From: Gammaproteobacteria bacterium
GTDB taxonomy: Bacteria; Pseudomonadota; Gammaproteobacteria; Steroidobacterales; Rariloculaceae
Direction of reading: 5' to 3'
DNA length: 64,000 bases
Assembly (NCBI GenBank): GCA_036563665.1
Contig: DATCLY010000070.1
Span: 284-64,283, forward strand
Shown here: piece after piece, positions 9,014 to 54,104 of the stretch
Position numbering within the stretch: position 1 is the stretch's first letter
How the letters are laid out: each line of letters begins with the position of its first letter
The notes under the pieces: model-generated
The model's input: the letters and a program-made list of their open reading frames with translations, nothing else
Database searches by the model: none
Told to the model about the DNA's origin: nothing
Made by a program: the position numbers and the translations under genes

Positions 9014-9415
9014 TCATTCCTGCTCGCCCGTGCTCGTCCACAGAGGCTCGCCGGTATCGGCCCGCACCATCGACGACGCGTTCGCCGTGTTCGTGCCGTT
9101 GCGCGCCCGATAGCCTTTGACCTTGATGGCGTCGCCCGGCTTCAGCGTGCGGCGCGTGAGGCCGCTGCGCGCCAGCGAGTTCACGCCGAGCAGCTCCACC
9201 GCCCACCGCGAGCGGTTGCCGTCGGCGTCCGTGACTTCCATGTGCACCCAGGTATGCGGGTTCGTCCATTCGATGTCCGTCACTGTGCCGGTGATCTCCA
9301 CCGGCTGACCGATGTCGAACTCCGCCGAGAACGAATGATGGGCGTGCACGCAAGCCCATGCGACAGCGAAAGCGAGCCCCGCGCTCGCCGACACCAGCGT
9401 TCTCAAAACCCCCAT
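9014..9415 (-). CDS. small secreted protein, DUF6152-like paralog 1 (family name from memory, to be verified)
   Basis: ATG 9415 is preceded by AGGGGAG. The signal peptide ends ...AWACVHA and the mature protein starts HHSFSAEFD. It carries the conserved IEWTNPH and KPGDAIKV motifs shared with paralogs at 23033, 46446 and 49536. Confidence 0.8.
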   Translation of the reverse strand: MGVLRTLVSASAGLAFAVAWACVHAHHSFSAEFDIGQPVEITGTVTDIEWTNPHTWVHMEVTDADGNRSRWAVELLGVNSLARSGLTRRTLKPGDAIKVKGYRARNGTNTANASSMVRADTGEPLWTSTGEQE

Positions 9416-9506: not shown

Positions 9507-10589
9507 ATGAGACGGCCGGCGGCAGCCCTTCTTTTGATCGTTGCGAGCGCACCGTTGCACGCGCAGTGGTTCGACTGGCGCTCTCCGCTCGTGCCGCGCA
9601 CGGCCGACGGGCGGCCGGACCTGAACGCGCCGGCGCCGAAGACGCCCGACGGCCGGCCCGACCTGACCGGTCTGTGGGTGCCCGAAGGCGCGCGCGGCAG
9701 CCTGTTCGACGAGTCGAAGATCCTCGGTTGGGCCCGTGACGCGATGGCCGAGAGGGAGCGGCGCTACTTCCAGGACGATCCGCGCTTTCATTGCCTGCCG
9801 AGCGGACCGAGCTCGTATCTCGCCGGGGCCTCGGTCGGCGGCACCCGCAGGATCGTGCAGCACCCGACTTTCATCGCCGTGCTGAATCCCGACATGACCT
9901 ATCGCGAGATCTTCATGGACGGCCGCGAGCTCGAGGACGAGCCGGTCCTGCCGACCTGGATGGGGTACTCCGCCGGCCGCTGGGAAGGCGACACTCTCGT
10001 CGTCGAGAGCAACGGCTACAACGACAAGACTTGGCTGACCCGCGAGGGGCTGCCGCACACCGAGCAGCTGCGGATCACGGAACGCTACACGCGGCTCGAC
10101 TACGGTCACATGAAGCTCGAGATCACGTACGAGGATCCCGGCACGTTCACGGAGCCCGTGCAGGCCATCGTCGATCTCGTGCATCGGCCGGACGGCGCGA
10201 TGCTCGAGGTGGTCTGCAACGAGTCGGAAACGGGGCGCCGTCATTACAGCGGGGATATCGAGCAGGCCGAGACGAAGGTCGTGGAGGTTCCCGAGGACGT
10301 GCTGCGCCGCTACGTCGGCACGTACCGGGGCACGTGGCTCGGCAACCGGATCACGGCCGTCGTCACCTTCGAGGACGGCGCGCTCTATGTCACGCGCTCC
10401 CCGCGCTATTCCGACACGGGCGGCAACACGGACTCGGACACGTCCCGTCTGATCCCGCAGTCCGAGAACGCGTTCGACAGCAGCTTCGGCCTCGGCTTCG
10501 TGTTCAACGTGAACGAGAACGGCGAGGTCGAGAGCGTATCGGAGGTGCACGTCTCCGGCGCGTGGGTGCTGCGGCGCGTAGAGCCGTAG
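9507..10589 (+). CDS. secreted uncharacterised protein, 'C-x-P-x-G / WEGDTLVV' paralog family, copy 1
   Basis: ATG 9507 follows GGGGGAG and gives the signal MRRPAAALLLIVASAPLHAQ. Family motifs present: FHCLPSGP, GYSAGRWEGDTLVVES, EDPGTFTEP. Confidence 0.8.
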   Translation: MRRPAAALLLIVASAPLHAQWFDWRSPLVPRTADGRPDLNAPAPKTPDGRPDLTGLWVPEGARGSLFDESKILGWARDAMAERERRYFQDDPRFHCLPSGPSSYLAGASVGGTRRIVQHPTFIAVLNPDMTYREIFMDGRELEDEPVLPTWMGYSAGRWEGDTLVVESNGYNDKTWLTREGLPHTEQLRITERYTRLDYGHMKLEITYEDPGTFTEPVQAIVDLVHRPDGAMLEVVCNESETGRRHYSGDIEQAETKVVEVPEDVLRRYVGTYRGTWLGNRITAVVTFEDGALYVTRSPRYSDTGGNTDSDTSRLIPQSENAFDSSFGLGFVFNVNENGEVESVSEVHVSGAWVLRRVEP

Positions 10590-15062: not shown

Positions 15063-15086
15063 GCCGCAACGCCTTCGGGAGGGGAC

Positions 15087-29150: not shown

Positions 29151-29246
29151 TGGCGGAAGGCAGCAGGAGTCGAACCTACCGGGGTGCGTCTGACGCCCCC
29201 GCCCGGGTTTGAAGCCCGGCCGCACCACCGGGTGCGTGTGCCTTCC
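29151..29246 (-). tRNA. selC: tRNA-Sec (anticodon UCA)
   Basis: The reverse complement reads GGAAGGCACACGCACCCGGTGGTGCGGCCGGGCTTCAAACCCGGGCGGGGGCGTCAGACGCACCCCGGTAGGTTCGACTCCTGCTGCCTTCCGCCA. It has a long acceptor stem, anticodon loop CT-TCA-AA, a long variable arm, a GGTTCGACTCC T-arm and an encoded CCA. It is 96 nt long and lies next to selB. Confidence 0.92.
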
Positions 29247-37606: not shown

Positions 37607-37614
37607 GGCTGCTC

Positions 37615-40683: not shown

Positions 40684-40792
40684 CGAATCCCCCTTCGACT
40701 TCGCGGCAAACGAGCTGATTCGAAAGACAGTATACCAGCGGAGCCCGGCCGCGGCCGGTCCATCATCGGTTCCCGCTCCCCGGCGCGCGCGA

Positions 40793-41707: not shown

Positions 41708-41710
41708 CGG

Positions 41711-42416
41711 CTACTCCCCGGCGGCACGTGCGAGATGCCGATGGAGGAACCTCACGATGCGCGGCCAGAGATCCGCCGACGCGGCGGCGTTGCCGCGCGG
41801 GCTGCCGCCGAACGCGCGCGTGAGCGGCACGACCGGATGCCGCCCGGACGTGCTCGTCGCAGGGAGGTTCGGCGGCATGCACGCGAAGTGCCCCGCCGCG
41901 GGATAGCGCACGTGCTCGAACGGGTACGCGAACCCGCGGCTGCGCAGGCGCTCCTCGGCGATCGCGGCGAGCCGCGCGGACGCCCAGAGCTGGTCGTCCT
42001 CGGCCGACATCATCAAGATCGGGCCGCGCGTTCGCTCGACGGGTATGGCGAAGGCGTCGATGCCGGCGCCCACCGCGTCGAGCGCGCGCAGGAACGCGGG
42101 CGCTCCCGCGAACGGCGCGCCCGTGGCGAACGCGGCGCGGCTTCCTGCATCGTGAGCGGATCGCCGGGCGGCGGGAAGACGGGGAACGGCTTGAAGGCGA
42201 GCATCCATCGGCGCCTTGGTAATCGCCCCCGACCGGCGCGTGCCGCGAGACGTCGACCGCGCCGTCGGCGGAGGCGACGAATTCCGCGCTCGCTTCCGCC
42301 TTCAGCGTGTGATTCCGGAGCTGCAAGCGGACGCGCGCGCCTGGCTCGAGGCCCGCCAGCGTGATCGCGGCCGGCTGGTCGACCAGGGCGTCAGCCGGCG
42401 TGACCGTGAGCCGCAT
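41711..42416 (-). pseudogene. acyl-CoA thioesterase/BAAT-family gene remnant (internal deletion plus frame changes)
   Basis: The BAAT N-domain start (MRLTVTPADALVDQPAAITLAGLEPGARVRLQLRNHTLKAEASAEFVASADGAVDVSRHAPVGGDYQGADG) is in one frame. The BAAT_C end (IDAFAIPVERTRGPILMMSAEDDQLWASARLAAIAEERLRSRGFAYPFEHVRYPAAGH) is in another. The whole locus is about 236 codons, whereas I recall this family as roughly 400 aa or more. The GxSxG nucleophile region is absent. Confidence 0.65.
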
Positions 42417-42523
42417 CGTCGACTCGGCGCGCTTCGACCGTCCGGCGCGTGAGAGCCCTTCCATCACTGCGCTCCACAGCGATCTCGGAGCGCATCATAT
42501 CCCGCCCGCCATGGGACGGTCTC

Positions 42524-44053
42524 TCACCGCAGCGGCAGCGCCCCCGAGGCGTCGTATTGCACCGGGCAGCCGAGCACGAAGCTCCCCACCCGGGCACGCT
42601 CGGCACAGAACGCCTGCGCCGCCTCCGCCTGCCTCTGGACGTTCGCCAGCGTTTCTTCCATCGGCAGCCCGCCCGGCGGCCCATGGACAGCCACGTTGCG
42701 CACGGGATCGAGGCCGTAGGCCTCGATGTTGGCCGCCAACGCGCCGGCCCACCAGTGCCACGTCCATCCGGCGTCGCTCAAATCGCCCTCCATCATGATC
42801 CGCTCGGCGGGCAAGTAGGCGAACACGGCGTTCGCCATGTGCGAGTGGCCGATGACGTGATAGACGTCGAGCCGCCGGGTTTCGTCCTCGAGCACGAGGT
42901 GCTCGTTCACCGGGACGAACCGCAGATCGTGCGGGCTCAGGGCGAGCGCATCGGGGAAGACGACCGCCGGCCGCTCGATCATCTCCCGGATGATGCCTTC
43001 GTTCCCGGCGTGCGAGATCACCGCGAGCCCGCGCGAGACCGCCGCGCGGAGGCCCGCGGTGTGATCGAAGTGGTGGTGGCTCACGATGACCGCCGTCACG
43101 TCCTTGTCCGGAACGAGCTCGTTTGCCGCATCGATCCGGGCGAGCGTGTCGGCCGGGCTGCCGCCGGCCTCGAACATGACCAGGTGATCGGCGAACTCGA
43201 TGACGGCGCCGCCGTTGTTGCCCACGCGCACGTCCCAGACTCCGTCGGCGAGGCGGGTCACGACGACGTCGCGCCCGGCCGCGCGGGGAGCGCCGCGCGG
43301 CGAATCGGGGAACGACGGCAGCTGCTCGTCCGGAACGTCGAGGCGGTAGGAGTCGACCTGGAACATCAAGGTGATCTGATCGCGCCAGTCGAGGCGCGTC
43401 ATGAGGCCGTGCGGCAACCGCACGCCGTCATACGGCACGTAGCCGGTGAAGTGCGTCGTGACGGCGACCTCACCCAGGTTCACGTGCGGAACGATCCGGC
43501 GCGACCACGCCGGCAGCCCCGTCGCGGGATCGATCGCCATCCAGATCGGAGTGCCGTCCTCCAGCGTGAACTGGACGACGGAGCGCCCGTCCTCGACCGT
43601 GATCGCGCCGAGCTTCGTGGCCGGATCCAGCGCCTCGAGCACCGCCGGCAGGGGATGGTCCAGCAGGTCCGCGCCGGTTTGCAGCGTCTCGGTGCGATTC
43701 CAGTTGAGCCCGAACGGCGCCGCGAACGGGAACATGTAGCTCAGCCGCTCCTGATTCAGCGCCCTGCCGTTCACGAGATCGAAGGTGCGCTGCGCGTCGG
43801 CGACGGCGCGCCACTTCGGCGGCGCGTCCGGATCGCCCGTGACGTTGCCGCCGCCGTCCTGATACAGGCGCTGGCCGAACCCCGTGAGCACGAAGTTGCG
43901 CACGCTGCGCAGGCGCTCCAGCCCGCCCATGGCTTCGGCGGTCGACTCGAGCAGCCGCCGGGCCGCGTCCTCCTGCGCAACGGCCGGCGCCGCGAGCGCG
44001 CTGGAAACCGCCGCCACGCTCGCGGCGGCCAGAGCAAAAGCTTGAATGCGCAT
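42524..44053 (-). CDS. secreted MBL-fold metallo-hydrolase with an N-terminal ~210-aa extra domain
   Basis: This is the real part of track ORF 42524..44938. ATG 44053 follows GGAGGGAGG and gives the signal MRIQAFALAAASVAAVSSALAAPAVAQ. The HxHxDH motif is IVSHHHFDHTAG. Confidence 0.85.
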   Translation of the reverse strand: MRIQAFALAAASVAAVSSALAAPAVAQEDAARRLLESTAEAMGGLERLRSVRNFVLTGFGQRLYQDGGGNVTGDPDAPPKWRAVADAQRTFDLVNGRALNQERLSYMFPFAAPFGLNWNRTETLQTGADLLDHPLPAVLEALDPATKLGAITVEDGRSVVQFTLEDGTPIWMAIDPATGLPAWSRRIVPHVNLGEVAVTTHFTGYVPYDGVRLPHGLMTRLDWRDQITLMFQVDSYRLDVPDEQLPSFPDSPRGAPRAAGRDVVVTRLADGVWDVRVGNNGGAVIEFADHLVMFEAGGSPADTLARIDAANELVPDKDVTAVIVSHHHFDHTAGLRAAVSRGLAVISHAGNEGIIREMIERPAVVFPDALALSPHDLRFVPVNEHLVLEDETRRLDVYHVIGHSHMANAVFAYLPAERIMMEGDLSDAGWTWHWWAGALAANIEAYGLDPVRNVAVHGPPGGLPMEETLANVQRQAEAAQAFCAERARVGSFVLGCPVQYDASGALPLR

Positions 44054-44115
44054 CAACCTCCCTCCTCGGCGGCACCCCGATTCTCGCCGGGCTGCGATCG
44101 GATCGTAGGGCTCGT

Positions 44116-45468
44116 TCATTCGAAGCGGAATATGTCGTCCTCGGCCGGAGGCTGCATGCCCTGTTCCCAGTACTTCCGCCAGATCGCCGCCCAAGGACGT
44201 CCGTACATGTCCGGCACCTCGTACTCGATGACGCGGCCGGGCGTCACCGGGGTGGCCGTTCCCTCGATCGGGAAGATGGTCTGGATGCACTCGGTATAGA
44301 CGTACGGGTCGGCCTTCGGGTCGTCGTACTCCGCTATCTTGACGAGCTTCCGGATGATGCGCACCGGCTCGACCAGCGCTTCGGGGTCGTACAGGATCGC
44401 TTCGTGATTGAGGCCGGTGAAGGCGCCGTTCTCGTCGCGCATCGGCGTATAGATCTCGATCGCCTGCATCTCGTTCGAATGCTCGAACGCCGAATGTGTC
44501 TTCCAGCCGAGTATGTTCGAGGTCCACGTGATGAGCGTGTCCTCGTCCCAGAAGCCGATCGTCTCCCCGTACCAGCGCGGCACGTCGGCGCCCAGGCGCG
44601 GCACGCGCCCGTCCAGGTTGAACTCGCGGCCGACATGAATGTTCGTGATGAAATTGAGCGCGCCGCTCGCGAAGATCTGCACGAGCTTCGGCGTCACCAG
44701 GACGAAGTGATCGTACGCCGCCCACTCGTGCCACCGGCGCACGAAGCCTTCCGGCCAGCAGTACTGCGACGGCCATTGCGGCTTGTTCGTATGACCGTGG
44801 TGGTACGCCTCCTGCACGAGACGCGTCTGGTACTCGGGCGTGAGGAGCGACAAGACTGTCGGCACCTGCACGTGGCGCATGTTGAACCAGTGCTCGTTGT
44901 CCGGGACGAAACGCGGCTGCCGGTAGACGCCGTTCCATTCATCGCCCGGAACGGTCGCGTAGGTGTGCTCGGTGGGGCCGCCGCGGCGCCTGGTCTCCGC
45001 GAGCAACGCCTCGTAGTGCTCCTGCGCGGTCCGGAACGGGTACGGGCTCACGATCGACTCGCGCGGATAGTCGCGATCGCAGTGGCCCCAGGGAGCGGTG
45101 CGCGGCGGGTCGTCGCCCATCAGGCTCGGGGCGTTGCCGCCCCAGAGGCTCTCGATCGCGAGCGGGCTGTTGCAGCGGAAGTAGCGCGGATCGCTCCACA
45201 AGTGGCGGTCCGCGTAGAAGTCCGTCGTCGTGAAGAGATCGCGCTCGAGCGGCTCGATGCCGGGCGGCGTTTCGCCGGCGCGCGCCGAGCCGATGAACCG
45301 GCCGTCGCGGGACATGGTCGCGCCGACCAGCTCGTAACGATTGATGTCGTGCCGGAGCGGTGCCGCCCGTCCGACGCTGACGAAGCCGATGTCCGCCGCC
45401 TGCTGGGCGCTCGCCGCCGTGCCCGCCAGCGCGACCGCGGCGATGGCGAGGCGTATCGCATGCCTCAT
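44116..45468 (-). CDS. secreted uncharacterised protein, long divergent member of the 'WEGDTLVV' family (copy 3)
   Basis: ATG 45468 follows AAGGGGGAG and the protein has a signal peptide. The motifs are degenerate: YCWPEGF and WYGETIGFWDEDTLITWTSN. Confidence 0.7.
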   Translation of the reverse strand: MRHAIRLAIAAVALAGTAASAQQAADIGFVSVGRAAPLRHDINRYELVGATMSRDGRFIGSARAGETPPGIEPLERDLFTTTDFYADRHLWSDPRYFRCNSPLAIESLWGGNAPSLMGDDPPRTAPWGHCDRDYPRESIVSPYPFRTAQEHYEALLAETRRRGGPTEHTYATVPGDEWNGVYRQPRFVPDNEHWFNMRHVQVPTVLSLLTPEYQTRLVQEAYHHGHTNKPQWPSQYCWPEGFVRRWHEWAAYDHFVLVTPKLVQIFASGALNFITNIHVGREFNLDGRVPRLGADVPRWYGETIGFWDEDTLITWTSNILGWKTHSAFEHSNEMQAIEIYTPMRDENGAFTGLNHEAILYDPEALVEPVRIIRKLVKIAEYDDPKADPYVYTECIQTIFPIEGTATPVTPGRVIEYEVPDMYGRPWAAIWRKYWEQGMQPPAEDDIFRFE

Positions 45469-45492
45469 GGTCTCCCCCTTCGCGTTGCGCGG

Positions 45493-46449
45493 CTATCGAG
45501 CCGCGTCCTCGAGCCGGACCTCGCCGATCCCGGCCGCGCGATCGCGGAACTGGTTGAACAGCGATTCGTCGCTCGGGACGCAGCGATCCTCCAGGATACC
45601 CGACCACCCGCCGATCGCCATGCGTTCCTTCGGGATCAGCGCCCAGACCTTCGGGCTCGCTTCCCACGGCTCGGTGTAGGTCGCGGGGTCGATCAGGGTG
45701 AGCCGCACGCGCAGCCGGTTGGGGCTCGGGCGGTCCCAGCGCTCCTCCAGCACCGCCTCGTCGCTGATGGGGAAGCCGTACTGGTCGAGCCACTGCCGGT
45801 CGTCGAAGCCGGTCGAGGTCACGACGAGCGTGTCGCCCTCCCAGCGGCCGACCGAGTAGCCGTTGAAGCGCGGCAGGTAGTCCTCGACGTTCGGGATGCC
45901 GCGCCCGTCCAACCAGATGTCGCGGAAATCCCAGGTCCACTCGAAGAGCTGAAGAATCCGGTCGTCCGTTTGCACGATCTCCATCGCGGCCCCGATCCCG
46001 GCGAACGTGATCAGCCGCGCGAGGCCGAGCGGCTCGCAGCGCATCTCCGGGTCGTTGCCGAACGCGGGCAGCACCGCGCGACGGTAGCCCGGATGGATGT
46101 CGGTGCGCTGCGCGGCCGCTTCACTGCCGAGCTCGAGGCCGCGCGACGGCCGGTTCTGCTCGAACCGCCGTTGCCCTTCCGGCGTCATCGGCGGCGTCTC
46201 GCCGAAGAAGCCGTAGCCCGGCCAGGTGGCCGGGTCGCGGCACTCCGGGCAAGGGGGCAGGTCGTATTGCTCCGGCGCGCGGCTCCAGAGCCCGCGAAAG
46301 TCCCGCTTGTCGTAGCTGCGCGTGTCCGTGTCCGACGAGCCGATGCCGCCGGGCGCGGCCGCCGGGCGGTCGCCCTGCGCCGCCGCGCCCTGGCCGAGCA
46401 GCGCGAGCACACAGGTCGCCGCCACCGCGAACGGGCGGTATCGCCTCAT
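45493..46449 (-). CDS. secreted uncharacterised protein, 'C-x-P-x-G / WEGDTLVV' family, copy 4
   Basis: This is the real part of track ORF 45493..46824. ATG 46449 overlaps the upstream stop (ATGA). Motifs present: MRCEPLGLA, GYSVGRWEGDTLVVTS, IDPATYTEPW. Confidence 0.8.
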   Translation of the reverse strand: MRRYRPFAVAATCVLALLGQGAAAQGDRPAAAPGGIGSSDTDTRSYDKRDFRGLWSRAPEQYDLPPCPECRDPATWPGYGFFGETPPMTPEGQRRFEQNRPSRGLELGSEAAAQRTDIHPGYRRAVLPAFGNDPEMRCEPLGLARLITFAGIGAAMEIVQTDDRILQLFEWTWDFRDIWLDGRGIPNVEDYLPRFNGYSVGRWEGDTLVVTSTGFDDRQWLDQYGFPISDEAVLEERWDRPSPNRLRVRLTLIDPATYTEPWEASPKVWALIPKERMAIGGWSGILEDRCVPSDESLFNQFRDRAAGIGEVRLEDAAR

Positions 46450-46937
46450 CGCGCTGCCTCCTCGCCCGGGAGGAGCTTGTCGCCCGTCGGCTGGCGGCCG
46501 CCCGGCACACCGTCGAGGTCCGGAGCGCCCGGGCCGCCGAATCCTCCGGCGATCGGTTCCCCGTTCTCGTTCTCGATGCGCATCACGATGGCGCTGAATC
46601 CGCCCGCGCGCGACGTGCCGAGCGTGAGCTTCACGCGCGTGCCGGGCGCTAAGGCGTCGAGCGTGCGCTTGCGGGTCCAGCCCTGCCGCGCCATCGTCGA
46701 CGGGTTGGTCAGCAGCTCCGCAAGCCAGTGCTCCACCTCGCCGTTTCCCACGACGCGGTCGAAGGTCATCGTGGGGTGCGGGTTCGCATAGTTGAACCAC
46801 GTGACCGTGGCCCACGTGGTCCACAGGTTCTCGACGTCATACGAGATGGCGCTGCCGTGGTGTGCGCCTGCCGGCATCGCAGTCATAACCAGCCCGACGG
46901 CGATTGCCGCGATCGCGCCGTGCATCCGTCGTCTCAT
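46446..46937 (-). CDS. small secreted protein, DUF6152-like paralog 3 (with Gly/Pro-rich C-terminal tail)
   Basis: ATG 46937 follows GAAGGAGGAA. The signal peptide ends ...MPAGA and the mature protein starts HHGSAISYD. It carries FNYANPH and APGTRVKL. Confidence 0.8.
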   Translation of the reverse strand: MRRRMHGAIAAIAVGLVMTAMPAGAHHGSAISYDVENLWTTWATVTWFNYANPHPTMTFDRVVGNGEVEHWLAELLTNPSTMARQGWTRKRTLDALAPGTRVKLTLGTSRAGGFSAIVMRIENENGEPIAGGFGGPGAPDLDGVPGGRQPTGDKLLPGEEAAR

Positions 46938-46949
46938 GGGGTTCCTCCT

Positions 46950-48704
46950 TCATCGGTCGCCGGCGAGATCGCGATACACCGCTTCGATGAACGCCTCGGT
47001 GGTCCACGGCCCGCGGGTGGCACCGAACACGCCGGCGTAGTCGAGCGCGGGCCGGCTGCGCTTGACGTCGGCCAGCGATTCGCCGGCGTCGATCGCGCGC
47101 TGGATGCGGTCCCGGATGATCGTGAGCATGTCCCGGTACTCCGCGACGTCGGTCTCGTCGTACAGCCGGCCGTGCCCTGGAACCACGCTCGTTCCGCCTT
47201 GCGCGCGCGTCTCGGCCACGGTGATGTCGAGGATGCGGTTCAAGGCCGCGATGAGACCGTTCACGGAGCCGCCCTCGCTCGCGGCGAAGCTCGGAAAGCT
47301 GGTGGTGGAGATCACGCCGCCCGCGCTGACGACGTCGGAGCCGCGGAAGAACACCAGCGAGTCGCCGTCCGTGTGCGCGCCTGGCACGTGGATGATCTCG
47401 ATCGCTTCGCCGTTGAAGTAGATCGCCTTCGACGCGCCGTAGAAAGTATCCATGACGAGGTTGCCCGCCTCGGCGCCGGTCTCCGCGAGGCGCAGCCCCA
47501 CGTTCTCGTGCGCGAGCACGGCCGCCTGCTGCAACGGCTCGTTCGCGAGCACGAGGTTGCCCCCGGTGTGGTCCGCGTGGAAATGCGTGTTCACGACATA
47601 GCGGATGGGCCGATCGCCCGCGAGCCGCCGGATCTCCTCGCGAACGGCCGGGGCCGCGTCCGCCGACCCCGTGTCGACGACGAGGACGCCTTCGTCGCCG
47701 ATCTGCACCGTGACGTTGCCGCCTGCGCCGAAGATCGCCCACACCTTTCCCTTCACGTGCATCGAGCGGATGCCCGCCGGGGGCGGCGCGGCCGCCGTCA
47801 CGGTGGCCGGCGGCGCCGCGACGGCGCGGTTGCCCCCGCGCTCGAGGCGGGCGGCGAACTCGGGGTACATCGTCGGCGCGCCCGCCGCCAACGCCCAGCG
47901 CGGCAGCGAGTACTTGCCCGCGAACTCGTCCAGCAGCGGATTCTCGCCCGGCAGGTAATGCGGCACGCGGTACTTGTCGGCCGTCGTCTCCTCCGCCGGG
48001 AAGCACTTGTAGAAGATCGGCGCGTCGTTGCGGGTGAGCGGATCGCCGAGCGCGGGCCCGGGACGCGGCAGCAACCGATACTCCGTGGTCCTGACGAACG
48101 GCTCGGCCAAGTACACCGGGTCGTCGACGACGGTGGTCACCAGCAGGTAGTCGTCGAAGCGCGTGAACTGCTCGATCATCCTCGCGCGCTCGCTCGTGGG
48201 CGCGCCGTTGCGGCGCAGCCAGCCGGGCTTCATGTGCGTGGTCTCGACGACGAGCGAATCTCCCTCCCAGCGACCCGTGGAGAACCCTTCGAAGGTGTGG
48301 AGCGCTTCCGGCGGCGGATGGGGACGACCGTCCAGCCAGACGATGCGGTCGATGCCGAAGGTGCCCTCCAGCCGGATCGCCTCCGCGACGCGGCGCACCC
48401 GATCGAACTGGGTCGTGACGACCAGCGTGTTCGGCCCCCAGAGCTGATACGCCGCCGGATGGGGCGTGCACTGATGCTCGGGGACGCTGAGCCAGGAGCC
48501 GGAGTAGCTCTCGGCCTTGCGGATGCCGGCCTCGTTGAGCGGCAGCCCGAGGTAGTCGCCGATCTCGGGTCCCGCGCCCCGGTCGTTGAAATCCTCGTGG
48601 CCGAAGACGCCCGGATGCTCCCAGGCGCCCGTGAAGTCCACTTGCGCGACGGCGATGGAGAGCGGCGCGAGCGCCAGCGCGAGAAGCGATTCGAGCCGTT
48701 TCAC
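46950..48704 (-). CDS. natural fusion: 'WEGDTLVV' family domain (copy 5) + MBL-fold metallo-hydrolase domain, secreted
   Basis: The start is GTG 48704. The N-half has DFTGAW, HQCTPHPAA, GFSTGRWEGDSLVVET and VDDPVYLAEPF. The C-half has VVNTHFHADHTGG and HVPGAHTDGD. Confidence 0.85.
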   Translation of the reverse strand: MKRLESLLALALAPLSIAVAQVDFTGAWEHPGVFGHEDFNDRGAGPEIGDYLGLPLNEAGIRKAESYSGSWLSVPEHQCTPHPAAYQLWGPNTLVVTTQFDRVRRVAEAIRLEGTFGIDRIVWLDGRPHPPPEALHTFEGFSTGRWEGDSLVVETTHMKPGWLRRNGAPTSERARMIEQFTRFDDYLLVTTVVDDPVYLAEPFVRTTEYRLLPRPGPALGDPLTRNDAPIFYKCFPAEETTADKYRVPHYLPGENPLLDEFAGKYSLPRWALAAGAPTMYPEFAARLERGGNRAVAAPPATVTAAAPPPAGIRSMHVKGKVWAIFGAGGNVTVQIGDEGVLVVDTGSADAAPAVREEIRRLAGDRPIRYVVNTHFHADHTGGNLVLANEPLQQAAVLAHENVGLRLAETGAEAGNLVMDTFYGASKAIYFNGEAIEIIHVPGAHTDGDSLVFFRGSDVVSAGGVISTTSFPSFAASEGGSVNGLIAALNRILDITVAETRAQGGTSVVPGHGRLYDETDVAEYRDMLTIIRDRIQRAIDAGESLADVKRSRPALDYAGVFGATRGPWTTEAFIEAVYRDLAGDR

Positions 48705-48705
48705 C

Positions 48706-49536
48706 CTACTCTCCTCGTGCCGCGAGCGGCGGCGCCGTCCGGCAGGGCGACGGGCGCCAGCTCGAGCCGTCCGGCTCGCGCTTGAAATGCGACGACGTGA
48801 CGAAATCGCTGCTCAAGTACGTCGGGTCGTGGACGATCGAGAGCACGGTCAGGTAATCGTTGCCGAACGCCGAGAAGCGGGAGAAATACTCCGTGAGCAC
48901 TGCGTTCTCGCTATAGGGCACGCCGTTCTTGCGCAGATACCCGGCGCGCAGGTGCGTGGTCACCGCCTTGAGCGCGCCCTTGGGTGGGCCGTCCGCGGGC
49001 ACGGGCGGCCTGCCGCTCATCACCGCCCTCAGATCGAAGCCCCCGACGGGGCGCGTCCACTCCGCGGTCGTGAAGCCCTGCCAGCTCTTCTCCGTCGACG
49101 GCGGCGGCGCGGCGCCGAAGCGGAGCAACCGCGTCTGCTCGCCCGCATCGGTCTCGATCTTGAGCGTGTCGTCGTCGTGCCAGGAGATGTGCAGGCGCAA
49201 CGGCATCCGCATGAGGCCGGCCGCGCCGAACGGCCGGCAGGCTTCGCCGCTCGCGGCGTCGCGCGCGGGATCCCATGCCGCGGCGACGCGTCGGCCTTCC
49301 GCGTTGAGCGGCACGCTGGTCGCGTCGCCCGGCGGCGGCGTGATCATTCGCCACAGCCAGTCCTCCGTGACCAGCGCCACCCAGTAGCCGGTGAGATCCA
49401 CCTGCGCGGATTCCCGCGCCGAGCGCGGCGCGGCGAAGCCGGGTCCTGCACCCGGCTGGGCGACGGCGGGTCCCGCGACGGTCAGCGCGATGAGCGACAG
49501 GGCGGCCGAAGGCCACGCCGCGCAGTGTCGCCGCAT
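48706..49536 (-). CDS. secreted uncharacterised protein, 'WEGDTLVV' family copy 6 (WEGD motif degenerate)
   Basis: This is the real part of track ORF 48706..49722. ATG 49536 overlaps the upstream stop (TGATG). It has DLTGYW, EACRPFGAAG and VHDPTYLSSDF. It aligns with the N-half of 46950..48704, for example THLRAGYLRKNGVPYSENAVLTEYFSRF against THMKPGWLRRNGAPTSERARMIEQFTRF. Confidence 0.75.
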   Translation of the reverse strand: MRRHCAAWPSAALSLIALTVAGPAVAQPGAGPGFAAPRSARESAQVDLTGYWVALVTEDWLWRMITPPPGDATSVPLNAEGRRVAAAWDPARDAASGEACRPFGAAGLMRMPLRLHISWHDDDTLKIETDAGEQTRLLRFGAAPPPSTEKSWQGFTTAEWTRPVGGFDLRAVMSGRPPVPADGPPKGALKAVTTHLRAGYLRKNGVPYSENAVLTEYFSRFSAFGNDYLTVLSIVHDPTYLSSDFVTSSHFKREPDGSSWRPSPCRTAPPLAARGE

Positions 49537-49928
49537 CAGTCCACGACCTCGCCCGGCAGAGTGCCCCAACCGAAACCGTCCGTCGTGCGCGTGATCGTCC
49601 TGAGCAGCAGACGGTGCTCCTCGGCGACCCGCCCCGGGTTCCCCGTCACGATGACCGGATCGCCGGGCCGCAGGGTTTGCGCCGTCAACCCGCGGGCGCC
49701 GAGCTGATTCGCGCCCTGCCACTCCACGGCCCAGCGGGTGCTCCCGCCGGAGCCGTCGGGCACCAGCACGTGCAGCACCGAATGCGGATTGCGGAACTGG
49801 AACTGCGCCACCTTGCCTTCGATGCGAATCGTCTCGTCGGCCCGGTAAACGGCCGCGAAGGAATGATGCGCGGCCGCCTGCCCGGCCGAGAGCGTCGCGA
49901 GCGCCAGAGCGACGACGATGCGTTTCAT
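49536..49928 (-). CDS. small secreted protein, DUF6152-like paralog 4
   Basis: ATG 49928 gives MKRIVVALALATLSAGQAAA, and the mature protein starts HHSFAAVYR. It carries FQFRNPH and RPGDPVIV. Confidence 0.8.
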   Translation of the reverse strand: MKRIVVALALATLSAGQAAAHHSFAAVYRADETIRIEGKVAQFQFRNPHSVLHVLVPDGSGGSTRWAVEWQGANQLGARGLTAQTLRPGDPVIVTGNPGRVAEEHRLLLRTITRTTDGFGWGTLPGEVVD

Positions 49929-49933
49929 CTGAG

Positions 49934-50935
49934 TCACCTGCGGTTCTTGCGGACGATGTCCGCCTGCATGCATTCGGAGACGATCCGCCAGAAGCGCTGA
50001 TACCGCTCGCTGCCCATGACGAACGGATGCGGGTCGCCCGGCCCTCGAGCCGCGAGCGCGGCGAGGCGCGCCGGCGTGTCGTCGAAGATCGGATGATTCT
50101 GTATCTCGACGTCCACGTTCTCGCGCGCCGCGACGTCGAGATAGTGGGCGATCGAGTCGATGTAGCGCTCGAGCCCCGCCGGCGGCGTGTAGGCCGCCGC
50201 GAGCACGGTGCCGCCGAAGAGGCCGGCCACGTGAGCTTCGCCGCGGTCGCGCACGGGGAAGATGAACGCGAGCGCGCCCGGCGTGTGACCCGGAATCTCC
50301 ACGGGCGTGATGGTCAGGTCGCCGACGACGATCGGCTCGCCCTCACGCACGACGAGGTCGCGCGTCGGGGCGGGTGTCGCGTCCCGCCTCCCCGAGGTCA
50401 CCGCCTGGGCGATGGTATCCCAGTCGGCCGCCGTGGTCCCGACCCGTGCGCCGTAGCGCGTCTGGAAGTAGCTCGCGCCGCCGTAGTGATCCGAATGGCC
50501 GTGGCCGAGCAGCACGAGCACCACGTCCGCGGGGTCGAGGCCGAGCTCGACGAGCCCGGGGAGCAGCACGGGCTCCACCTCCGACGCCACGCCGGCATCG
50601 ATGAGGACGATGCCCGCCGACGTCGTGATCGCGTGAACGACCGTCTCGGAGTTGCCGAGCGCGTATAGATTATCGAACAGTTTGACGGGCTCGAGCGGCG
50701 GCGCCGAGAAGTCGTTCGGCCGCGCGTTGCCGGGGACGCAGAAGAACTCGAAGGGCGCCGTCAGGTCCGTGCCGGCCAGGAGGCGCGCGTTCTCGACGTG
50801 GCGTGCGGCAAGCGCCTCGGCGGGGGCGTCGTCCGTCACGCCGTCCTGCGCCAGTGCCTGCCCGAACGGCAGGAGGAGCAGCGTTGCCGCTGCGCCGAGG
50901 CAGGTGGCGTAGAGCCCGGTTCTCGACTGACGCAT
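49934..50935 (-). CDS. secreted MBL-fold metallo-hydrolase (subclass B3-like layout)
   Basis: It has a signal peptide, the HxHxDH motif LLGHGHSDHYGG, and a downstream PGHTPG. Confidence 0.8.
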   Translation of the reverse strand: MRQSRTGLYATCLGAAATLLLLPFGQALAQDGVTDDAPAEALAARHVENARLLAGTDLTAPFEFFCVPGNARPNDFSAPPLEPVKLFDNLYALGNSETVVHAITTSAGIVLIDAGVASEVEPVLLPGLVELGLDPADVVLVLLGHGHSDHYGGASYFQTRYGARVGTTAADWDTIAQAVTSGRRDATPAPTRDLVVREGEPIVVGDLTITPVEIPGHTPGALAFIFPVRDRGEAHVAGLFGGTVLAAAYTPPAGLERYIDSIAHYLDVAARENVDVEIQNHPIFDDTPARLAALAARGPGDPHPFVMGSERYQRFWRIVSECMQADIVRKNRR

Positions 50936-50999
50936 ACGACCCCCACGCTTCCGGCGGAAGCGCCGACGGACATAGTGCGTCGCGAGAAGCGCGGCGGTG

Positions 51000-51014
51000 A
51001 TCGAATTTTCGAAT
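51000..51014. promoter_or_regulatory. candidate LysR-type box ATCGAATTTTCGAAT (T-N11-A; inverted repeat TCGAA-tt-TTCGA)
   Basis: This AT-rich element lies in the 114-bp gap between the LysR stop (51050) and the MBL gene start (50935). A TATAAA-like element is adjacent. Confidence 0.4.
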
Positions 51015-51049
51015 GCCAGGTATAAAGGCTCGACGATGAGTCGCGTCGG

Positions 51050-51952
51050 TCAGACCGAGCTCGCGACCTGCAGCAATTGCTCGCGCATCCACGCGTGCGC
51101 CGGGCTCGAGGTGAAGCGCGGGTTCCAGGCCAGCTTCTCGCGCAGCGGGGGCACCTCGAACGGCAGCTCCAGCAGGCGCAGCTCCGCCGCGTTCCGCATC
51201 CGCTCGCCGAGGCGCCGCGGCAGCATGGCGAGCAGCCGCGTTCCCCGCAGCAGGAACGGCGCGGCCGTGAAGCTCGCGCTCGACGCGGCGATCTTCTGCA
51301 CGTGGCCGTGGCGAGAGAGGTACTCGTCGGCGATGGAGAGGCGGCCTGGGTCCGAGATATTGAAGGAGAGGTGCGGATGCGCGAGGTACTCCTCGAGCGA
51401 CAGCGTGTCGCCGATCGCCGGATGTCCCGCCCAGACGGCGCATACCCAGCCGTCGTCGAACAGCGGGATCGAAGGCAGCGACAGCTCGACTTCCTCGGGG
51501 AAGATGCCGAAATCCACCTCGCCCGCCGCGATGCGCTCGCCGGCTTCCACGTCGAGCCGCACGAAGTGCAGCGACACGCCCGGCGCCGCTTCCGCCAGCC
51601 GCTGCATCAGGGGGCCGAACAGCAGCAGCACGGCGTAGTCGCTGGCGGCGATGCTGAAGGAACGGCTCTGCGTGGCCAGCGAGAAGCTCGGCTTCGCGTT
51701 CAGGAGCTCTTCGAGCTCCACGACGTGCCGGTGCACGCGGTCGGCGATGCCGGCGGCGAACTCGGTGAGCTCGAGATGCCGGCCCACGCGCACGAGCAGC
51801 TCGTCATCGAACGTCTGCCTCAGCCTCGCGAGCATGCCGCTCATCGCCGGCTGACTCATGAACAGCCGCTCCGCCGCCCGCGTGACGTTCCGCTCCTGCA
51901 GCAGCGCGTCGAGCGCGAGCAGCAGGTTGAGGTCGAACTGCCTGAGATTCAT
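51050..51952 (-). CDS. LysR family transcriptional regulator (NodD-like)
   Basis: The N-terminus is MNLRQFDLNLLLALDALLQERNVTRAAERLFMSQPAMSGMLARLRQTF, followed by a LysR substrate-binding domain. Confidence 0.88.
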   Translation of the reverse strand: MNLRQFDLNLLLALDALLQERNVTRAAERLFMSQPAMSGMLARLRQTFDDELLVRVGRHLELTEFAAGIADRVHRHVVELEELLNAKPSFSLATQSRSFSIAASDYAVLLLFGPLMQRLAEAAPGVSLHFVRLDVEAGERIAAGEVDFGIFPEEVELSLPSIPLFDDGWVCAVWAGHPAIGDTLSLEEYLAHPHLSFNISDPGRLSIADEYLSRHGHVQKIAASSASFTAAPFLLRGTRLLAMLPRRLGERMRNAAELRLLELPFEVPPLREKLAWNPRFTSSPAHAWMREQLLQVASSV

Positions 51953-51970
51953 CGCGGTGGCTCGGAGCCC

Positions 51971-52762
51971 CTACTCCGCTATGCGGTGCCGCTCGAGCTC
52001 GTCGTGCCAGAGCCCCTTGCTGCAGCCGTACTCGAGCGTCGCGGAGTCGTCCATGCGCTGATAGTAGGCGATGCGCCGCTGCGGGCCGTCGTAGAGCGTG
52101 GGATCGGTCAGCGTCATGTCGATCACGAGCACGTCGTCGTTGATCGGCGGCTGAACCGTGGCCACGAAGCCGGTCGGCCGCGGGCCCACGTTCGCGAGCT
52201 TGGTGAGCCGGACGCGCTCCACGATCCGGGTCTGCTCGCTGCGCGGCCATGGGCGGAGCCACCACTCCTCGAGCAGCCGCGTGTCGATGACCAGCGTGTC
52301 GCCGTCCCACGTGCCGATCGAGTAGCCGACCCCGGCGGGCGGATAGTCGTCCGGAAACTCCCGGCCGTCCAGGAACACGCGGCGGACCTGCGTCTCGAGC
52401 TCGGCCACCATCACGATGCGCGACGCGGTCTGCACGAGCTCGATCGGATAGGACACCAGCGACAGCATGACGCCCGGCATGCCCGCCCCGACGCACCAGG
52501 CGCCCGTCTCCGGAATCTCCGAGAACTGCTCGGCGAACGCGCGCAGCTTCGCCTCGCCTTCCGCCGAGTAGCGCGGCGCGTTGCCGCCGCCGTCCGGGTT
52601 CTCGACGGCGAACGCCATCCACACGCCGGAGAAGTCCGGATGCGACGCCGTCCCGGCTGTCGCGTCCTGCGCCGGGTCCGCCGGTGTGCAGGCGGTCGCG
52701 AGCAGGAACGCGAGCGGTAAACCCGCCGCGAGAAAACCCGTGGATCGATGCAATGCCGGCAT
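51971..52762 (-). CDS. secreted or lipoprotein uncharacterised protein, 'C-x-P-x-G / WEGDTLVV' family, copy 7
   Basis: Motifs present: AWCVGAGMPG, GYSIGTWDGDTLVIDT, LTDPTLYDGP. The N-terminus ends ...FLLATAC. Confidence 0.8.
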   Translation of the reverse strand: MPALHRSTGFLAAGLPLAFLLATACTPADPAQDATAGTASHPDFSGVWMAFAVENPDGGGNAPRYSAEGEAKLRAFAEQFSEIPETGAWCVGAGMPGVMLSLVSYPIELVQTASRIVMVAELETQVRRVFLDGREFPDDYPPAGVGYSIGTWDGDTLVIDTRLLEEWWLRPWPRSEQTRIVERVRLTKLANVGPRPTGFVATVQPPINDDVLVIDMTLTDPTLYDGPQRRIAYYQRMDDSATLEYGCSKGLWHDELERHRIAE

Positions 52763-53182
52763 TGAGGTCCCCCGAGCCCAATGCGCCGTGGGCGGATCGA
52801 GACTGCGGCGAGTATAGGCGAGCCGCGCGGCGGGGAACCAGCGCGCGACGAGCGCCGGCGCGCCACGCCGGCAACGGTTGCGGCGCCAGGCGCCCTCTGC
52901 ACCCGGCGTGACGGCGCACCGTCCGTCGATGAAGCCGACGCGACAGGAGTCCCAGATCGCGCAGACGCGCCGTGACGAGCGAGCGTCCGAGCGTCAGCGC
53001 AGCGATGCCGAGCGCCACCGCGGCCGAGAGCGCGGCGTTGACGAACGGATCGGCGAGCCCATCGGCCCACGCGTCGAGGGGAGGCACTTCCGCCTCCAGC
53101 GCAGCCACGACGAGCCAAGCGGCGGCCGCGGCGACTCCTCCATACCGCAGCATGCGGCGGAGCGTCGACCTTCGCAGCGCCT

Positions 53183-53671
53183 TCAACGCGGCATCCTCAC
53201 GCGCCTGGATCTCGGCGCGAATCCAGAGCACGTCGGGATCCGGCAAGGCCGGGGCTGCAGCGGCGATCTCGCGATGGTCGAGCTCCTCGACGTACGCCAG
53301 CCACAGCAACGAGCGTTGCCGCGGCGCGAGCCCCGGAACGCGCGCTCGACGTCGCCGTCGAGCGCGGGATCGACCGCTTCCTCGAGCAGCTCCGCCGCCG
53401 CACGGTCGCGCTCGCCTTCGCGCCGGTGCCGGCGCCAGCGATCGACCACGAGCGTCTCGGCCGTCCGATACAGATAGCCCCGCATCTCGGCTTCGCTCAG
53501 CAACGGCGGTGCCTTCGTGAGGAAGCGCACGAACGCGTCCTGCAGGACGTCGTCCGCCGCGTGCAGCGAGCCGACGCTGCGCGCGATGTACGCGCGCAGC
53601 GCCGGCGCCGTCTCGCGATAGAAGCGGCGGAACGCGGCCTGGTCCATGCGCGCACGGCCGGCAGCGGGCAT
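53183..53671 (-). CDS. ECF-type sigma-70 family factor, apparently frameshifted and lacking a recognisable region 4.2
   Basis: Region 2 (FRRFYRETAPALRAYI...DDVLQDAFVRFL...YLYRTAETLVVDRWRR) is in the frame of track ORF 53183..53671. The start of region 4 (GLAPRQRSLLWLAYVEELDHREIAA) is in the frame of ORF 51804..53681. The switch is at the C-run at 53330-53333. Confidence 0.7.
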   Translation of the reverse strand: MPAAGRARMDQAAFRRFYRETAPALRAYIARSVGSLHAADDVLQDAFVRFLTKAPPLLSEAEMRGYLYRTAETLVVDRWRRHRREGERDRAAAELLEEAVDPALDGDVERAFRGSRRGNARCCGWRTSRSSTIARSPLQPRPCRIPTCSGFAPRSRRVRMPR

Positions 53672-53733
53672 GGGCGCTCACGCGCCTCGCTTCTCGGTGA
53701 GGACGAGACGCAGCAGGGCGTTGAACAGGAGCC

Positions 53734-53880
53734 CTATGCCGACGGCCGCGAGAATCTCGCGATAAGCGCCTTCTGCAGCTCGGTCCGATGACGAATCTTG
53801 GCCCGAACGTGCGCGGCGCCCAGCGCCAGGACGAACGCGACGAACCCGAACACCACCAGCGTGATCAGCACCGTCTGCAT
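53734..53880 (-). CDS. possible small membrane protein (48 aa; below the track cutoff)
   Basis: ATG 53880 lies 7 nt after GGAGGAGG. The translation is MQTVLITLVVFGFVAFVLALGAAHVRAKIRHRTELQKALIARFSRPSA. Confidence 0.3.
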   Translation of the reverse strand: MQTVLITLVVFGFVAFVLALGAAHVRAKIRHRTELQKALIARFSRPSA

Positions 53881-54104
53881 GGCACATCCTCCTCCGGACG
53901 ATCACGCGCTTGACGCTCGTCGGCGCCGCAAGGTTAACAGGGGGAAGCGGAATGTCGCTCGTAGCGGCCGGCCGCGAGCAAGATGCCGAAGAGCGGATCG
54001 CCCGCACGAGCGCCCGCCGGTGAGCGCGACGAGCTACTGCCCCTCGTCCGCCGGTGCTTTCGCCTCGAGCGCGAACCTTCCGGCCCGCAAGGCTGCTGCC
54101 CCGG

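Follow-up and report, generated by a model that had tools for sequence, protein, structure and literature searches.

A conserved, LysR-linked cassette of predicted secreted WEGD-family, DUF6152, and metallo-β-lactamase-fold proteins in an uncultured gammaproteobacterium

A 10-kb array of co-oriented genes was analyzed within a 64,000-nucleotide (nt) stretch of an uncultured gammaproteobacterial genome (GenBank assembly GCA_036563665.1, contig DATCLY010000070.1, positions 284 to 64,283 of the forward strand), hereafter called the window. The DNA is ∼70% G+C, and its closest relatives are metagenome-assembled genomes (MAGs) of uncultured Gammaproteobacteria. The array comprises ten minus-strand open reading frames (ORFs), which encode five members of a family designated W ("WEGD"; W7, W6, W5, W4, and W3), two DUF6152 proteins (DUF_A and DUF_B), three metallo-β-lactamase (MBL)-fold domains (MBL_A, MBL_B, which is fused to W5, and MBL_C), and a LysR-type regulator (Table 1). 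In transcription order, the products are 263, 300, 333, 130, 276, 584, 163, 318, 450, and 509 amino acids (aa) long, with the same lengths in independent public gene calls on identical contigs (L004-L006), and the genes are separated by 18, 114, 5, -1, 1, 12, -4, 24, and 62 nt. GGAGG-like ribosome sites precede most of them. Each of the nine structural products starts with a basic N terminus, followed by a 12-residue hydrophobic stretch (mean Kyte-Doolittle hydropathy of >2.0) and an A-x-A-type cleavage site; these signal peptides were called by this heuristic, not by a dedicated predictor. The LysR regulator scores far below every named NCBIfam equivalog. The original prediction, made from the letters of the window, is borne out in its anatomy: ten minus-strand genes with short gaps or overlaps, LysR, MBL, and DUF6152 identities (Pfam matches above cut-off), a signal peptide on every structural product, and intact HxHxDH motifs in all three MBL domains (HGHSDH at residues 145 to 150 of MBL_A, HFHADH at 374 to 379 of the fusion protein, and HHHFDH at 326 to 331 of MBL_C).

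Table 1. Features of the array and related genes elsewhere in the window (Pfam cut-offs, 22.7 bits for PF00753 and 27 bits for PF19649)
Feature	Position	Strand	Description
W7	51971..52762	-	263-aa WEGD barrel-family member, probably a lipoprotein (LLATAC lipobox-like); neighbour, not conserved core
LysR-type regulator	51050..51952	-	HTH_1, 57.7 bits, and LysR_substrate, 81.3 bits (Pfam, above cut-off); same orientation as the structural genes
Conserved block in the 114-nt LysR/MBL_A gap	50972..51023	-	Candidate LysR operator and weak promoter
MBL_A	49934..50935	-	Predicted secreted subclass-B3-like MBL-fold hydrolase; Lactamase_B, 54.0 bits
DUF6152 copy A (DUF_A)	49536..49928	-	Secreted, predicted oligonucleotide/oligosaccharide-binding (OB) fold; PF19649, 75.6 bits; 1-nt overlap with W6
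W6	48706..49536	-	Barrel family, degenerate WEGD turn; BLASTP against W5 domain, 5e-21
W5-MBL_B fusion	46950..48704	-	Pfam Lactamase_B at residues 328-390, 52.8 bits
W5 domain of fusion	~aa 1-290, nt 47835-48704	-	N-terminal predicted barrel, followed by an Ala/Pro-rich linker
MBL_B domain of fusion	~aa 310-584, nt 46950-47775	-	C-terminal, HFHADH
DUF6152 copy B (DUF_B)	46446..46937	-	163 aa; PF19649, 52.1 bits; 4-nt overlap with W4
W4	45493..46449	-	Barrel family, canonical RWEGDTLVV turn; BLASTP against W1, 6e-26
W3	44116..45468	-	450-aa divergent barrel-family member with an extra N-terminal region; BLASTP against W1, 6e-8, and W4, 1e-3
MBL_C	42524..44053	-	Predicted secreted MBL-fold hydrolase, HHHFDH; Lactamase_B, 41.4 bits over residues 284-407; ~250-aa N-terminal domain
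DUF6152 copy 1	9014..9415	-	Transcribed divergently from W1, with which it forms a free-standing pair; BLASTP against DUF_A, 2e-21; PF19649
W1	9507..10589	+	Barrel-family member; C-terminal DUF3471-like tail (27.9 bits against a cut-off of 29.3)
DUF6152 copy 2 and W2	23033-23416, then 22240-23031 (1-nt gap)	-	Free-standing pair; orthologous pairs in L087 and L088

The window encodes seven W copies: five in the array and two (W1 and W2) elsewhere. All are homologous (21 to 38% identity; BLASTP E values of 1e-8 to 6e-26 between most pairs), and the literal WEGD is missing in W6 and W3. The W proteins retrieved no match from Pfam, NCBIfam, or the sequences of the PDB, the last of which was searched even with a 115-sequence profile. 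A word-indexed search matched 6,830 of 8,000 scored candidates, every named one being a "hypothetical protein," and 15,180 clusters (50% identity) matched W at E values of 1e-3 or lower, 8,330 of them at 1e-10 or lower; the cluster members that bear a name are all unnamed MAG proteins. As judged from these searches, W is a very large family of predicted secreted proteins that is absent from Pfam.

An AlphaFold2 (AF2) model of W7 (predicted local distance difference test [pLDDT] score, 83; predicted template modeling [pTM] score, 0.78) consists of one strand carrying G46-x-W48, two helices, and then eight to nine antiparallel strands; GxW is a signature of the calycins. Among the 50 PDB matches listed for this model by Foldseek, the top 46 were cellular retinoid- or fatty-acid-binding proteins and the other four were barrels resembling fatty-acid-binding proteins (FABPs), with a best E value of 2e-4, a probability of 1.0, a target-normalized template modeling (TM) score of 0.5 to 0.6 (about 0.57), and a query-normalized score of only ∼0.33. 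Across the 115 aligned W sequences, W48, C90, and C247 are invariant, as are R127, E182, and D220 (W7 numbering), and G46 is at least 90% conserved. The W-E/D-G-D motif lies at the hairpin between strands 147-153 and 156-162 of the model, and because it falls at a β-hairpin turn, it looks structural rather than catalytic. It is plausible that the W family adopts a secreted, disulfide-clamped, calycin/FABP-like barrel, as modeled.

All four DUF6152 copies in the window match PF19649, and thousands of DUF6152 hits were retrieved. An AF2 model (pLDDT, 81) shows a classical five-strand OB fold, the N-terminal tail of which reaches a pLDDT of only ∼72. An A/S-x-A triplet followed by His-His at the predicted cleavage site (motif A-H-H-[S/G]) is invariant in 73 sequences (the 4 copies of the window plus 69 relatives) and obeys the (-3, -1) rule. 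Because the leader ends in A/S-x-A just before this invariant His-His, the mature protein is predicted to start with His1-His2, with His29 of an NPH motif near in sequence. NPH (H49) lies in the loop between OB strands 1 and 2 and is likewise invariant, together with H22, W66, and E69; the invariant Trp and Glu fall on strand 3 in a 79-sequence alignment. The invariant mature His-His suggests a metal site in DUF6152. A mature N-terminal histidine is documented as a general metal-chelating feature of secreted proteins and has recently served to discover DUF4198, DUF6702 (His1, His28, and His32), and the "anglerases" (PMC12537917). Neither that article with its supplements nor the other literature searched mentions DUF6152. 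PDB sequence searches with DUF_A and with the 79-sequence DUF6152 profile gave no meaningful match.

The three MBL-fold domains differ in how well their metal ligands are conserved. The best solved relative of MBL_A is BJP-1 (E value of 7e-23), and HGHSDH, H217, and H281 of MBL_A align with the zinc ligands of subclass B3 enzymes; all six B3 ligand positions (H116, H118, and H196; D120, H121, and H263) are present and 96 to 100% conserved over 26 sequences. However, MBL_A stays below the NCBIfam B3 threshold (NF033105, 107.1 bits against a cut-off of 240), and the best named B3 family, CAR, scores 113.6 bits against a cut-off of 500. The ligands of MBL_C (H76, H78, D80, H81, H155, D174, and H207 in the numbering of its C-terminal half) are 100% conserved in 17 sequences. 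With metal ligands at least 94% conserved among their orthologs, MBL_A and MBL_C are predicted to be the reliably catalytic metallohydrolases of the cassette, for which hydrolysis is plausible. The N-terminal regions of MBL_C and W3 have no Pfam match at E values up to 1. The possibility that the N-terminal domain of MBL_C is a diverged W barrel was also considered and rejected (hhalign probability of 0.2%).

MBL_B is a different case. Of 73 relatives covering the motif, 15 carry a complete HxHxDH and 58 have lost it, with 28 keeping only the last His, and syntenic orthologs at 64 to 78% identity read DFHDEN, NWQEAH, or QWSDEH. Other motifs are far better kept (AHTDGD; FRxSDV, with the Asp in 93 of 94 sequences; and PGHG, with the His in 70 of 94), and domains of this type often lose the first two histidines of HxHxDH while retaining the equivalents of H121, D221, and H263. 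As the motif has been lost in 58 of 73 relatives, di-zinc hydrolysis is not the conserved role that the sequences of the MBL_B family indicate. MBL_B may instead be mononuclear via Zn2-type ligands, which B2 enzymes use, or noncatalytic. The proposal of a hydrolytic system thus stands as plausible for MBL_A and MBL_C but does not extend to the fusion protein as a family, which cautions against assigning a hydrolytic role to a whole MBL family from the intact HxHxDH of one genome.

Gene fusions and gene order tie the components to one another. For the comparison, we used 80 loci with full-length relatives of the fusion protein (down to 37% identity), collected in a scan of one genome per species; since they were retrieved with this protein, the set is biased toward fusion-containing loci. 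They come from Gammaproteobacteria (including Steroidobacteraceae), Acidobacteriota (Vicinamibacterales and Bryobacterales), and Acidimicrobiia. A single ORF encodes both W5 and MBL_B in 49 cases, and two neighbouring ORFs do so in 27. In other proteins a W6-type domain stands behind a W5-type one (P0001-P0009); the W5-type barrel thus exists on its own as well as joined to MBL_B or to a W6-type barrel. A third kind of fusion is encoded in L096 (GCA_036381515.1; 15183-16199, minus strand): a 338-aa DUF6152-W protein with a signal peptide, AHHS, and NPH, followed by WWEGDTLVVD in the barrel. As separate genes, DUF6152 directly precedes most W genes, often with an overlap, as for both DUF_A/W6 (1 nt) and DUF_B/W4 (4 nt) here; in the related loci a W gene starts within 400 nt after DUF6152 in 62 of 78 cases. 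This pairing is type specific, DUF_B going with W4 (32 times) and DUF_A with W6 (22 times). A search of a collection of plasmids from cultured organisms found no W-MBL fusion; only the MBL half found relatives there (∼31% identity, on rhizobial megaplasmids). Megaplasmids of Novosphingobium also carry W-family genes.

The conserved core is a seven-gene cassette of LysR, MBL_A, DUF_A, W6, W5-MBL_B, DUF_B, and W4. All eight of its parts, counting W5 and MBL_B separately, occur together in 11 loci, in the order of the window in ten and rearranged in L034; in another group, the rearranged set reads LysR, DUF_B, W4, MBL_A (on the opposite strand), W6, W5-MBL_B, W3, and MBL_C. The triad of W5, MBL_B, and W6 is present in 55 of the 80 loci, across phyla. 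In 17 loci the cassette begins with a LysR ortholog (at least 300 bits), and W6-type orthologs occur in 56. W4-type orthologs, found in 31 loci, score a median of 518 bits with W4 against 78 bits with any other paralog. All ten genes are present, at 83 to 92% identity, in L094 (GCA_036381915.1), the closest long relative. Overall, the gene order of the cassette is retained in at least 11 related MAGs. Because the core is conserved and variously fused across phyla, we regard it as a real periplasmic system. The proposal of a dedicated, secreted, conserved system is upheld by these data, as is the synteny that was to be looked for in related genomes.

The ten-gene run is nevertheless a composite and not one evolutionary unit. 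W3 has its own orthogroup in 15 loci and lies within 10 kb of MBL_C in 11; in the relatives, the two genes are either appended directly to the cassette or stand apart with a second LysR gene and a divergent DUF6152 of their own. W3/MBL_C is thus a separable pair that is attached only sometimes. A divergent DUF6152-like gene that keeps AHHS and has ANH in place of NPH precedes W3 in L014 (19104-19595, minus strand), with equivalents in L016, L017, L031, and L033; it is missing from the window, where a 24-nt gap separates W4 from W3. W7 adjoins LysR only in L094 (88% identity); none of the 80 other loci has it there, and its orthologs at 67 to 72% identity sit in unrelated neighbourhoods. W7 was accordingly rejected as a core member, having orthologs elsewhere and none adjacent to the cassette in the 80 loci, although it is kept in L094. 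The genes that flank the array in the window are never adjacent to the cassette among the other 80 loci.

The array had been attributed to repeated local duplication, with decay of the paralogs named as an outcome that would speak against a functional system. Neither fits the data. The W paralogs are only 21 to 38% identical, and each has its own orthogroup in other lineages, Acidobacteriota included (median of 199 to 518 bits to the cognate copy against 0 to 78 to the others), so that the duplications are ancient, and recent local duplication is rejected. The paralogs are not decaying, because the ratio of nonsynonymous to synonymous substitution rates (dN/dS) is 0.12 to 0.23 for the seven core genes in comparisons with three relatives, which indicates purifying selection.

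The 114-nt gap between LysR and MBL_A contains the sole A+T-richer stretch. In the window the gap carries ATACC (51023-51019), TCACCG (51000-50995), and, 17 nt farther on, CACTAT (50977-50972). An alignment across 11 genomes (MAFFT) shows ATACC, (A/T)TTCCG ∼20 nt later, and CA(G/C)TAT another 17 nt later to be kept while the rest of the gap has diverged. This block is a candidate activator-dependent weak promoter with an upstream LysR site; as for a T-N11-A operator, the conserved block is present, but no clear dyad can be defined in it. The block implies at least two transcription units, one for LysR (with or without W7) and one from MBL_A onward. Together with the adjacency of W7 in L094 only and the separability of W3/MBL_C, it argues against a single ten-gene operon. 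Consensus promoter and terminator scans of positions 41500 to 54000 returned 0 promoter-like and 2 terminator-like elements, fewer than expected from shuffled sequence and uninformative at 70% G+C.

The neighbourhoods of the triad and of free-standing DUF6152-W pairs provide hints to the biological setting. In the window (9014-16745), DUF6152 copy 1 and W1 stand beside a TonB-dependent receptor (10657-13407), an arylsulfotransferase (13474-15069), and a sulfatase (15087-16745). Domains of the DUF3471 type, resembled by the tail of W1, are usually attached to serine β-lactamase-fold hydrolases. In L090, a co-oriented run starts with a gene for an outer-membrane barrel (Pfam OMP_b-brl_4; a CarboxypepD_reg gene lies just upstream), W5, MBL_B (with an intact HAHPDH), and W6 and continues with an FAA hydrolase, an arylmalonate decarboxylase, a W5-W6 fusion, a cupin, a carboxylesterase, a GntR regulator, and a tannase/feruloyl esterase. 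L087 encodes DUF6152, W2, a 721-aa protein, W5, MBL_B (SADPEH), and W6, near serine β-lactamase-fold esterases, a ceramidase, and a B3-like MBL. The 721-aa protein (9193-11358), between the DUF6152-W2 pair and the triad, looks secreted and has no Pfam match. A DUF6152-W pair also lies beside a TonB-dependent receptor in L088, and the plasmid NZ_CP011453.2 of the cultured alphaproteobacterium Croceibacterium atlanticum 26DY36 (L092; positions 36365-40564 of the record) carries two DUF6152 genes, W, a TonB-dependent receptor (these four being WYH_RS16165-16150), and a MarR regulator in succession. Regulators near the triad or the pair are of the LysR, GntR, and MarR types and never metal sensors. 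These surroundings hint at organic catabolism rather than metal homeostasis.

No additional neighbour is universal, and no clustered family of nonquery ORFs occurs in more than 11 of the 80 loci; the commonest, each within this bound, are ankyrin, an FtsX-type permease, an amidohydrolase, DUF1552, and several TonB receptor families. Genes for HXXSHH/DUF1552, DUF1592-like, and ankyrin-repeat proteins recur near the W5/MBL_B core in 8 to 11 of the loci L007-L086 (Acidobacteriota and Gammaproteobacteria) and also beside W7 orthologs (L001 and L002, 10978-13826); the DUF1592-like label is a reading of the sequence and not a search result.

Taken together, we tentatively favor, at somewhat less than an even chance, a LysR-controlled periplasmic cassette for the capture and hydrolysis of a small organic compound, probably a hydrophobic or aromatic ester, lactone, or lactam. 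Such a compound would enter the periplasm, in the relatives often via a neighbouring TonB-dependent receptor, and would be captured by the W barrels, with W5 and W6 jointly presenting it to the attached MBL_B. MBL_A and MBL_C would carry out the hydrolysis, joined by MBL_B in genomes that, like this one, retain its complete site. DUF6152 would form a 1:1 complex with its cognate barrel and add an N-terminal-His metal site, through which it may deliver metal or act catalytically. LysR would sense the substrate or the product and activate the weak promoter in the 114-nt gap, from which MBL_A to W4 would be transcribed, and probably W3 and MBL_C as well.

Several points weigh against this model. 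The host is uncultured. The barrel assignment comes from a predicted model whose similarity to solved structures is modest, as the query-normalized TM score indicates. The di-metal motif of MBL_B has been lost in most relatives, and the hand-off from barrel to MBL domain may therefore lead to something other than hydrolysis. The 80 loci share no further partner throughout, each TonB receptor family occurring in at most 8 of them, and the operon boundaries are inferred, given the uninformative promoter and terminator scans in DNA of this composition. Finally, a protein with an N-terminal His-His encoded beside TonB receptors would fit metal uptake equally well.

This last point leads to the first alternative, metal capture and trafficking, which we consider unlikely but the best of those weighed. 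The His-His of DUF6152 would take up Zn, Cu, or Ni in the periplasm after TonB-dependent import, pass the metal to the W barrels or cooperate with them in the manner of the calycin-like ZinT, and in the end metallate the neighbouring MBL enzymes. The invariance of NPH and of the histidines at mature positions 1 and 2 speaks for this model, characterized N-terminal-His secreted proteins do bind or sequester metal (PMC12537917), DUF6152-W pairs occur beside TonB-dependent receptors (in the window, in L088, and on the Croceibacterium plasmid), and zinc enzymes are among the partners. However, the invariant residues of W are W, two Cys, R, G, L, E, and D, with no invariant His, Met, or free Cys, and no ZinT-type structure is among the top fold matches listed. 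Moreover, the MBL domain most closely tied to the barrels, MBL_B, is the one that is losing its metal ligands, the regulators (LysR, MarR, and GntR) are not of the Zur, Fur, NikR, or CueR type, and the loci are surrounded by esterases and other catabolic enzymes.

The tight, type-specific pairing of DUF6152 with W and the covalent DUF6152-W fusion would also suit a two-subunit metalloenzyme, in which DUF6152 caps the W barrel and a histidine-brace-like center oxidizes or otherwise transforms the bound hydrophobic substrate, with the MBL proteins acting before or after this step or as scaffolds. His1, His2, and NPH, the last in the loop between OB strands 1 and 2, are invariant, the predicted barrel is a fold typical of small-ligand binders, and, given that MBL_B tends to lose its catalytic motif, the chemistry may take place in another part of the system. 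This model is pure inference, though; it offers no explanation for R, E, and D, which are invariant in W, and no redox partner is consistently encoded nearby in the 80 loci. We rate it as doubtful, slightly more so than metal trafficking.

A β-lactam resistance or catabolism island, with MBL_A as a B3 β-lactamase, a class A β-lactamase downstream, and the other genes as accessories, is more improbable still. It draws on the six B3 ligands of MBL_A, on BJP-1 as the nearest solved relative, and on a class A β-lactamase gene at 40793-41707 that also follows the array in L094. MBL_A, however, falls far under every named B3 family (107 against 240 bits for the general NCBIfam B3 model), the class A gene lies beside the cassette in 0 of the 80 other loci, and seven barrel and DUF6152 genes and the fusions are left unexplained. 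A fortuitous run of unrelated secreted-protein genes sharing an orientation, which would agree with W7, the class A β-lactamase, and the BAAT fragment described below being only recent neighbours, is contradicted by gene order conserved in at least 11 loci, by a gene set that is kept even after rearrangement, by three kinds of fusion, by gene overlaps, and by a constant core amid variable flanks, and can be dismissed as highly improbable.

Bolder than the capture-and-hydrolysis model is a conjecture that we regard as speculative and unlikely: DUF6152 and W would form a previously unrecognized two-subunit periplasmic metalloprotein, in which the OB-fold subunit places an N-terminal His-His (histidine-brace-like) metal center at the opening of a calycin barrel with a hydrophobic substrate inside, and this unit, together with an often degenerate W5-MBL_B/W6 scaffold, would represent a new and widespread class. 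If true, it would define a class of substrate-processing complexes in Gammaproteobacteria, Acidobacteriota, and sphingomonads, often linked to TonB receptors. Whatever the chemistry, the locus indicates that the W and DUF6152 families work as a pair, with fusions in different lineages that join them to one another and to an MBL-fold domain, and that abundant uncultured soil bacteria carry the pair in cassettes that are regulated and look catabolic. For both families it raises concrete hypotheses, namely, that His1-His2 binds metal, that the barrel binds a ligand, and that a complex forms, and cultured sphingomonads that carry the pair (e.g., on the C. atlanticum 26DY36 plasmid) offer a tractable experimental entry point.

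The genes around the array deserve brief mention. The class A β-lactamase (SxxK, SDN, and KTG; minus strand) lies just past the array and, among the relatives, is adjacent to it in L094 only. Between the two, a BAAT/acyl-CoA thioesterase-like gene (41711-42467, minus strand) looks broken: a 165-aa C-terminal piece matches BAAT_C, and an N-terminal-like part lies in another frame. L094 has a BAAT fragment of only 114 aa (14415-14759) at a different position, the class A/BAAT order being swapped. The BAAT-like gene is probably decaying, and W7, the class A β-lactamase, and the BAAT fragment are recent neighbours and not part of the core. On the other side, an extracytoplasmic function (ECF) sigma-factor gene (53183-53671, minus strand) matches region 2 only, and the 420-nt "gap" before W7 (window 52763-53671) contains a region-4-like segment and two hydrophobic segments in another frame, which may reflect a frameshift or an uncalled anti-sigma gene. 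Farther downstream, the gene for a formate-dehydrogenase-like molybdopterin alpha subunit (37615-40833, minus strand) has an in-frame stop with a selenocysteine insertion element (SECIS_3; 40040-40098, minus strand, 84 bits) at the junction, and a tRNA-Sec gene (29155-29246, minus strand, 73 bits) lies ∼11 kb away. The gene thus encodes a selenoprotein accompanied by its tRNA.

Comparison with known systems sets the cassette apart while revealing partial likenesses. The nearest functional analogy would be with the MBL-fold type III sulfatases SdsA1 and Pisa1, in which, as predicted for the fusion protein, a secreted MBL domain is covalently joined to a domain for a hydrophobic ligand. Sulfatases of the SdsA1 type combine an MBL domain with a dimerization domain and a C-terminal SCP-2-like lipid-binding domain. 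Searched against PDB sequences, the fusion protein has SdsA1 among its best matches (E value of 1.4e-6), and MBL_C has PSdsA as its sole one. However, the similarity of both is only local (66 to 75 residues around HxHxDH), the predicted ligand domain of the fusion is N-terminal and calycin-like whereas SCP-2 is C-terminal in SdsA1, and the metal motif of the fusion is not conserved in its orthologs. Pfam searches found neither a dimerization nor an SCP-2 domain in the fusion or MBL_C, which places them outside the type III sulfatases. With the B3 enzymes (BJP-1, L1, GOB, and CAR), MBL_A shares secretion, the ligand equivalents, and an alignment of ∼230 residues to BJP-1, but it differs in its ∼75-residue N-terminal extension, its subthreshold score, and its place among barrel and OB-fold partners, unlike the B3 enzymes described. 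MBL_B resembles an inactive partner, such as CPSF-100 (with CPSF-73) or Int9 (with Int11), or a mononuclear Zn2-site enzyme, such as CphA, the homology being at the level of the fold only. CPSF-100 and Int9 are catalytically inactive MBL-fold partners, and CphA is a mono-zinc B2 enzyme.

The predicted topology of W agrees with that of the intracellular lipid-binding proteins (iLBPs: FABP and the cellular retinoic acid- and retinol-binding proteins CRABP and CRBP) and the calycins in its GxW strand, two helices, and antiparallel barrel. In contrast to iLBPs, W is about twice the size (mature domain of ∼230 aa) and predicted to be secreted and disulfide bonded, and it has no sequence-profile match to any Pfam lipocalin/FABP family. 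A literature search on lipocalin- or FABP-like barrels with periplasmic MBL proteins found nothing relevant. DUF6152, in turn, likewise resembles CusF, SilF, and the BOF protein YgiW in being a small secreted protein with a predicted OB fold, a likeness of predicted fold only, with no sequence similarity found in PDB sequence searches. CusF and SilF bind metal ions, the site of CusF being made of His, Met, and Trp in the barrel and not of an N-terminal His-His. DUF6152 shares a predicted mature His1 with the N-terminal-His metalloproteins, which include the brace proteins LPMO and CopC as well as DUF4198, DUF6702, Ang-1, and Ang-2, and its second His ∼28 residues on (His29, NPH) may be compared with His1, His28, and His32 of DUF6702 (PMC12537917). 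Both groups are periplasmic and often encoded beside TonB receptors; however, DUF6152 has a predicted OB fold in place of an Ig-like fold or β-sandwich, an invariant His at position 2, and an obligate gene partner, the W barrel. DUF6152 is a candidate fifth fold in this recently opened class of secreted metalloproteins. Overall, the combination of secreted binders, hydrolases, and a LysR regulator follows a known operon logic; the component families, their pairing, the network of fusions, and the degenerating MBL domain are new.

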